Shown here: piece by piece, positions 16,945 to 17,700 of the stretch | How positions within the stretch are numbered: the stretch's first letter is position 1 | Layout: each line of letters starts with the position of its first letter | NCBI RefSeq assembly: GCF_003334315.1 | Contig: NZ_QOWR01000013.1 | Strand: one strand, 5' to 3' | Length of the DNA: 64,000 nt | From: Escherichia coli | GTDB lineage: Bacteria; Pseudomonadota; Gammaproteobacteria; Enterobacterales; Enterobacteriaceae | Made by a program: the position numbers and the translations under genes | Notes under the pieces: generated by a model | Databases searched by the model: none | What the model saw: the letters and a program-made list of their open reading frames with translations, nothing else | What the model was told of the DNA's origin: nothing

Positions 16945-17522
16945 TGGTTTATCCCCGCTGGCGCGGGGAACTCGACAGAACGGCCTCAGTAGTCTCGTCA
17001 GGCTCCGGTTTATCCCCGCTGGCGCGGGGAACACCTGTTTTCGCAAATCTATGGACTATTGCTATTCGGTTTATCCCCGCTGGCGCGGGGAACACGGGCG
17101 CACGGAATACAAAGCCGTGTATCTGCTCGGTTTATCCCCGCTGGCGCGGGGAACACTGGCTCTGCAACAGCAGCACCCATGACCACGTCGGTTTATCCCC
17201 GCTGGCGCGGGGAACACCGAATCACGCCCCGCTTTTTACCGCGTCAGCGCGGTTTATCCCCGCTGGCGCGGGGAACACTCCATGAGCCAAAATTTCAAGG
17301 CTGGGATTCGCGGTTTATCCCCGCTGGCGCGGGGAACACGTACATACTCAAACGATTACTGAATCACAAAACGGTTTATCCCCGCTGGCGCGGGGAACAC
17401 CTGTGCTCCTGTTTTGTGCTGTAGTTACCGATCGGTTTATCCCCGCTGGCGCGGGGAACACTCCGACACTTAGTATCATTATGGTGTCCGACACGGTTTA
17501 TCCCCGCTGGCGCGGGGAACAC
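16945..17522 (-). CRISPR. CRISPR array, type I-E repeat, 10 repeats and 9 spacers
   Basis: 29-bp repeat CGGTTTATCCCCGCTGGCGCGGGGAACAC at exact 61-bp spacing (16945, 17006, 17067, 17128, 17189, 17250, 17311, 17372, 17433, 17494), all spacers 32 bp. Plus-strand reading is the reverse complement of the crRNA sense, so the array is transcribed leftward from the leader at 17523 onward; the leader-distal repeat (16945-16973) is degenerate. Confidence 0.97.
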
Positions 17523-17700
17523 TCTAATCATAACCTATTATTAATTAATGATTTTTTAAGCCAGTCACAATCTACCAACTTTATAGTATCACACAAACAA
17601 CACATCCATTATGTTAAAGAGCACTTAATCCATTGATTAAAAAGGTAAATATTTAAAATAACTCTATACAAACTAAAATCTACCAAACTTTACCGCAATA
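17523..17700 (-). promoter_or_regulatory. AT-rich CRISPR leader
   Basis: AT-rich sequence directly abutting the leader-proximal repeat; length of the leader is approximate. Confidence 0.6.

Follow-up and report, generated by a model that had tools for sequence, protein, structure and literature searches.

The type I-E CRISPR-Cas system of E. coli is distributed over two loci. CRISPR-I, between iap and cysH, comprises the CRISPR2.1 array and eight cas-E genes, and CRISPR-II, between ygcE and ygcF (queE), comprises CRISPR2.2 and CRISPR2.3, which lie 0.5 kb apart with the leader beside CRISPR2.3 (PMC3903273). The distance of the CRISPR-II array from the cas genes is the documented usual layout (PMC3903273, PMC3338789). 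In K-12, new spacers enter both CRISPR2.1 and CRISPR2.3, spacers of both loci give interference, and there is experimental evidence that CRISPR2.3 is processed into interference-giving crRNAs (PMC3338789). The leader acts in promoter activity and carries adaptation and integration signals (PMC3338789, PMC3903273, PMC10011333). We analyzed a CRISPR array in a stretch of 64,000 nucleotides of E. coli DNA (the window) and found that it is the known CRISPR2.3 of the CRISPR-II locus, a real and ordinary array with nothing new about it. The cas genes that go with this array in E. coli are normally about 20 kb away, which would place them just past the left edge of the window.

A repeat search showed that positions 16945-17522 consist of ten 29-nt units, reading CGGTTTATCCCCGCTGGCGCGGGGAACAC on the plus strand and starting at 16945, 17006 and so on to 17494, with a period of 61 bp at all nine intervals and a different 32-nt spacer in each; type I-E arrays have a period of 61-62 bp and spacers of 32-33 nt. 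Searching the whole 64 kb with up to 3 mismatches allowed revealed nine exact copies, the one at 16945 with 2 mismatches, and no further copies, while 100 dinucleotide-preserving shuffles gave no match to the repeat. The number and exact spacing of the repeats claimed in the original prediction were thus reproduced by both searches, and the nine extracted spacers agreed with its list letter for letter. Its span of 16945-17700 was right at the start only, as the array stops at 17522 and the additional bases up to 17700 cover about half of the leader, which extends to 17861. The reverse complement of the unit, GTGTTCCCCGCGCCAGCGGGGATAAACCG, is the E. coli type-2 repeat consensus, published as GWGTTCCCCGCGCCAGCGGGGATAAACCG (PMC3338789), bearing out the assignment to type I-E and indicating transcription of the array from the minus strand. 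For the repeat RNA a hairpin is predicted whose stem is 7 bp long and made of G+C pairs and whose loop has 4 nt (-15.2 kcal/mol, z -3.2), a model consistent with the stem-loop that Cas6e recognises in type I-E systems. Tandem Repeats Finder reported just 2.5 copies at the array, which is normal for a CRISPR array since its spacers are unrelated. At gathering thresholds Rfam detected no CRISPR repeat family in the window; its only hits were one tRNA, sok, and the small RNAs CsrB (37272-37631, minus strand), GcvB (55812-56017, plus strand) and ES036 (59033-59075, minus strand), the last three at the positions expected from K-12.

Could the repeats be of another kind, for instance REP/BIME elements, a minisatellite or a coding sequence with internal repeats? 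Two long open reading frames, 16941-17285 and 17059-17424, do cross the array. We rejected both as coding sequence, as they are artefacts of the periodic repeat. Against this explanation, a constant 29-nt palindrome with the I-E consensus sequence is interspersed with 32-nt spacers that are unrelated to one another, every RefSeq genome matched carries a CRISPR annotation at the array, and two spacers match phage genes beside the correct PAM (below), so that we give a non-CRISPR origin practically no weight.

Table 1. Coordinates of the CRISPR-II locus and of the left edge of the window.
Feature	Position	Strand	Description
IS421 (IS186-like, IS4-family) right end	1..75	.	inverted-repeat arm at 53-91; element stops at about 75
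ygcE, FGGY-family sugar kinase	14828..16306	+	ORF and annotation of a 99.9%-identical genome; left boundary of CRISPR-II
CRISPR2.2 remnant	16352..16441	-	two degenerate repeats, each 5 substitutions away from the 29-nt consensus, plus one 32-nt spacer
AT-rich stretch between CRISPR2.2 and CRISPR2.3	16442..16944	.	503 bp, 28% G+C
Truncated start of a third repeat, beyond CRISPR2.2	16463-16475
CRISPR2.3 array	16945..17522	-	ten 29-nt repeats and nine 32-nt spacers (W1-W9, the oldest leftmost)
Degenerate leader-distal (terminal) repeat	16945..16973	-	transcribed strand GAGTTCCCCGCGCCAGCGGGGATAAACCA; 2 mismatches vs the other nine
Spacer W1	16974-17005	-
Spacer W2	17035-17066	-	also in K-12
Spacer W3	17096-17127	-
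Spacer W4	17157-17188	-
Spacer W5	17218-17249	-
Spacer W6	17279-17310	-
Spacer W7	17340-17371	-
Spacer W8	17401-17432	-
Single-base difference within W8	17420	.	T in the window; C in 9/9 other arrays having W8
Spacer W9	17462-17493	-
CRISPR2.3 leader	17523..17861	-	30% G+C vs 51% in the window; starts at the queE stop codon
queE (ygcF)	17862..18533	-	right boundary of CRISPR-II; co-directional with the array

The flanking genes ygcE and queE together with the leader, the repeats, their spacing and their hairpin identify the array as CRISPR2.3 (Table 1). Around the array, from ygcE to queE, the window is in full synteny with K-12 and with E. coli 2017.17.03CC, and the annotation of these two genomes gives the gene order cysH, cysI, cysJ, queD, ygcN-W, yqcE, ygcE, the CRISPR, queE, yqcG, ygcG, eno, pyrG and onwards to recD. 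From the ygcE stop codon to the main array (16307-16944) the window is identical to K-12 at 638/638 positions. This interval holds a mini-array that the original prediction had missed, the CRISPR2.2 remnant, 503 bp to the left of the main array, whose spacer is AAGTTCGACAACTTAAAAAATGATAACAAGTC and which is the same in K-12 and in all relatives examined. Likewise, the degenerate terminal repeat of CRISPR2.3 has the same sequence in K-12 and in every relative examined.

The canonical repeat lies on the minus strand and the 339 bases on the queE side match the K-12 CRISPR II leader at 338 positions, the sole difference being at 17528; the proposed orientation, with the leader at queE and the degenerate repeat at ygcE, therefore holds. 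K-12 and the closest relative have the repeat-proximal block of this leader (GTTGGTAGATTGT ... TTAGAG) conserved in their CRISPR2.1 leaders too. By analogy with the published leader, the leader in the window would hold the promoter and the integration signals. A crude promoter scan gave, at its threshold, no minus-strand sigma-70 match in the leader, a result that we did not count against it given the crudeness of the scan. We found no terminator-like site between queE and the array, and since queE is co-directional with the array, we speculate that transcription may read through from queE into the array.

Comparison with K-12 MG1655 showed that its CRISPR II shares with the window array the flanks, the repeat, the terminal repeat, CRISPR2.2 and the oldest four spacers, W1-W4. 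After W4, K-12 goes on with x1 and x2, whereas the window array goes on with W5-W9. A repeat variant ending in CCT that precedes x1 in K-12 is missing in the window because this unit is deleted (PMC3338789). The two also differ in the partner cas operon, as K-12 carries the other I-E variant, while the relatives of the window carry the variant with longer CasA/B/D/E. The array had been said to hold more spacers than that of K-12, given as six, and probably to come from a strain other than K-12; extraction gave six K-12 spacers at this locus, in agreement with PMC3338789, and identity to MG1655 was 99.2% over 17 kb compared with 99.9% to 2017.17.03CC, and both statements hold.

The closest relative, 2017.17.03CC (NZ_AP027829.1), has the nine spacers of the window array in unchanged order and is 99.9% identical over the whole 64 kb; the two arrays differ by one base, in W8. 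Outside the array this genome has an IS2 inserted in ygcS and three initiator tRNA-Met genes in tandem, whereas in the window ygcS is intact and there is a single tRNA gene. The IS2 insertion point corresponds to window positions 10417-10421, where the alignment blocks overlap by 5 bp. At the single tRNA gene (60503-60579, plus strand) two units are cleanly lost in the alignment, which could be a real recombinational deletion or a collapse in the assembly; K-12 also has three tandem copies, metZWV. The reading frame of ygcG (18826-19698, plus strand; TPM-domain protein) is interrupted by a stop at codon 27; the gene is annotated as a pseudogene in 2017.17.03CC and TOE3 as well, while it is intact in K-12.

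To follow the genealogy we compared eleven CRISPR2.3 arrays. The fullest form is that of strain 127, which has 13 spacers in the order W1 W2 W3 W4 x1 x2 x3 x4 W5 W6 W7 W8 W9. The window array is this series minus the internal block x1-x4, plus one base change, and the K-12 array is its first six spacers. KTa005 branches off after W7 with eight different spacers, and the other relatives lack other internal units. None of the spacers of the window array is strain-specific among the eleven arrays, so the array gives no sign of recent activity. Among 5426 complete E. coli genomes, W5-W9 occur in 175, W6 occurs as a spacer in 55 and W2 in 1250. Judging from these spacer series, the array is old and has stayed static, and it corresponds to an ancestral 13-spacer array from which one internal four-spacer block was lost. 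Nine spacers as compared with the six of K-12 reflect different losses and an older split rather than recent gain. Thus the comparison with other E. coli arrays, which the original prediction had proposed for strain typing, indicates that the extra spacers are old and common to relatives and are not new acquisitions.

To identify spacer targets, the eight spacers W2-W9 were scanned against IMG/VR for exact matches, with any base allowed at every sixth position. Two of the eight, W2 and W6, were matched. The W6 protospacer lies on a viral contig (L009, 7211-7242, minus strand; 32/32) with AAG immediately before it, in a gene for a 392-aa tail fibre whose neighbours encode the baseplate and tail sheath of a contractile-tailed phage, and prophages in 3 E. 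coli genomes from swine carry a 100%-identical copy of the tail-fibre gene. Among the 5426 genomes, the W6 protospacer is present in 3, the spacer in 55 and both in none, numbers too small for statistics. The W2 protospacer (contig L016, 4936-4967, minus strand; 32/32) has ATG immediately before it and lies in a gene of the PHROG integrase family (2.7e-62) with exonuclease and Gam-like genes alongside; its context was found in no complete E. coli genome among the 5426. Both AAG and ATG are proficient in interference and make up the I-E consensus PAM (PMC3338789), and hence the two spacers with known targets both have the AWG PAM of type I-E. By our own arithmetic, the chance that both protospacers would have AAG or ATG is about (2/64)^2 = 0.001. 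Both matches reach 33 nt, through the G of the PAM, as expected if this G becomes the last base of the repeat, which the published integration model predicts (PMC3338789).

The remaining spacers scanned (W3, W4, W5, W7, W8 and W9) had no match in IMG/VR. A search of 50,697 GenBank phage records with ten spacers yielded only 25/27-nt chance matches to a Synechococcus phage (E=0.5), and 72,556 PLSDB plasmids searched with ten spacers yielded only three records of 4.8-4.9 Mb that match the CRISPR2.2 spacer. By their size, these three (NZ_OL790696.1, NZ_CP141089.1 and NZ_CP134663.1) are evidently chromosomes filed as plasmids. When W5-W9 were searched against the 5426 complete E. coli genomes, the best 60 of 175 matches all fell under CRISPR annotation, with no plasmid among them. 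Across 100,044 genomes, each representing one species, W9 had no match and W2 had none with an A[A/G/T]G PAM. Inside the 64-kb window we found no self-target at up to 8 mismatches. Taken together, the database searches suggested in the original prediction gave no credible protospacer in phage records or plasmids and no self-target in the window, while IMG/VR provided targets for W2 and W6; seven of the nine spacers had no target in the collections against which each was checked. Where they can be found, the targets are temperate phages.

No cas gene was detected within the 64 kb, as the original prediction had stated: tblastn of the window with 16 Cas proteins, eight from each of the two E. 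coli I-E variants, returned nothing at E<=1e-3, and the annotation of the near-identical 2017.17.03CC has no cas gene from cysH to recD. Given the documented split over two loci, the absence of adjacent cas genes is normal for CRISPR2.3 and is no anomaly. The original prediction was also correct that the window by itself does not tell whether the array is an orphan. What lies past the left edge, where the window begins with the right end of IS421, was judged from the genomes of relatives. Window positions 1-100 are identical to 2017.17.03CC and to BL21, and the hok-IS421 junction recurs across thousands of E. coli genomes, BL21 and E. coli C among them. The adjacent hok/sok-type toxin-antitoxin locus (97-391, minus strand) has an intact 50-aa Hok/Gef frame at 97-249 and an Rfam sok match at 234-391 (113 bits); the K-12 alignment begins only at window position 247, so the hok part is missing in K-12. 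We initially considered the IS421 end a strong sign of cas3 beyond it and dropped this argument, as E. coli B/BL21 has the same junction with IS421 directly against CRISPR2.1 and the whole cas operon gone, leaving arrays without cas genes.

Nine close relatives, sharing both the hok-IS421 junction and spacers of the window array, were examined. A cas3-to-cas2 operon and CRISPR2.1 follow IS421 in 8/9. As annotated, the cas set is fully intact in four of these eight (2017.17.03CC, OkiPb01684, HS30-1 and 2017.13.01CC), and in the other four (TOE3, ECZP248, L6-21 and ET729) cas3, cas6e or cas7e is pseudogenised by a frameshift or stop. The remaining relative, S171-1, has lost everything from cas3 to cas2 in an IS1-bounded deletion. 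Across the iap-cysH regions of these sister genomes the independent losses comprise cas3 frameshifts, a cas6e frameshift, internal stops in cas7e and the IS1-bounded deletion. HS30-1 has an additional IS1 between IS421 and cas3. In the CRISPR2.1 of 2017.17.03CC (L001, 9475-9625), the leader-distal end opens with two copies of the spacer ACATGAATGTCGGTTCAGACCGTGTTTTTACC, and a repeat variant with GACG instead of GGCG flanks the pair.

These counts bear on the possibility that the array of the source strain is a true orphan or fossil, its cas operon having been deleted or inactivated by a frameshift, a stop or an insertion sequence, in which case the array may still be transcribed, yet neither processed nor used. 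Such a loss agrees with the BL21 arrangement behind an identical junction, with the S171-1 deletion and the four pseudogenised operons, and hence with the lack of a fully intact cas set in 5/9 close relatives, as well as with the absence of any unique spacer and the drift mutation in W8. Against it, the closest genome of all, with the same nine spacers and 99.9% identity over 64 kb, has eight intact cas genes, and OkiPb01684, HS30-1 and 2017.13.01CC are intact too. We consider an orphan array possible and the less likely outcome. Based on the genomes of relatives and not on the source genome itself, we estimate that a cas operon is present 1.5-2.5 kb past the left edge of the window with high probability, and that its being fully intact has slightly better than an even chance.

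The reading we favour, and hold with good confidence, is that of a CRISPR2.3 array of the E. coli type I-E system served in trans by the iap-cysH cas operon, where service in trans in the source strain would follow by analogy with K-12, the operon itself lying outside the window. As suggested by published K-12 work, the leader promoter would drive minus-strand transcription from 17861 towards 16945, Cas6e would cleave the hairpin of every repeat and so release crRNAs of 61 nt, Cascade loaded with a crRNA would find spacer-matching DNA beside an AWG PAM and Cas3 would degrade it. New spacers would be inserted at the leader end by Cas1-Cas2 in an IHF-dependent manner, and all the Cas proteins would be supplied in trans from the iap-cysH operon beyond IS421, expected to begin some 1.5 kb past the left edge of the window. 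H-NS would silence the system under laboratory conditions; like other E. coli I-E systems, that of the present array is probably silenced under ordinary conditions. Whether the array functions in the source strain depends on a cas operon that probably lies just past the window and is often broken in this lineage.

For annotation and strain typing the array is usable, with little significance beyond these, and it places the source strain among the E. coli that carry CRISPR2.3 with W5-W9, 2017.17.03CC being the closest relative. W2, which K-12 also has, and W6 have perfect PAM-flanked targets in temperate phages, in keeping with a recent report that prophages are the main targets of E. coli spacers and that these spacers are old and stable (PMC10910852). 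The nearest relatives of the source strain show several independent routes to the loss of Cas function with CRISPR2.3 kept. A bolder proposal, which we think improbable, is that the I-E system of the whole lineage is in repeated independent decay while CRISPR2.3 and its leader stay nearly unchanged, so that the array of a Cas-deficient source strain would be a conserved orphan; if Cas function was indeed lost, the array might persist through its linkage to queE or through a Cas-independent use of its transcript.
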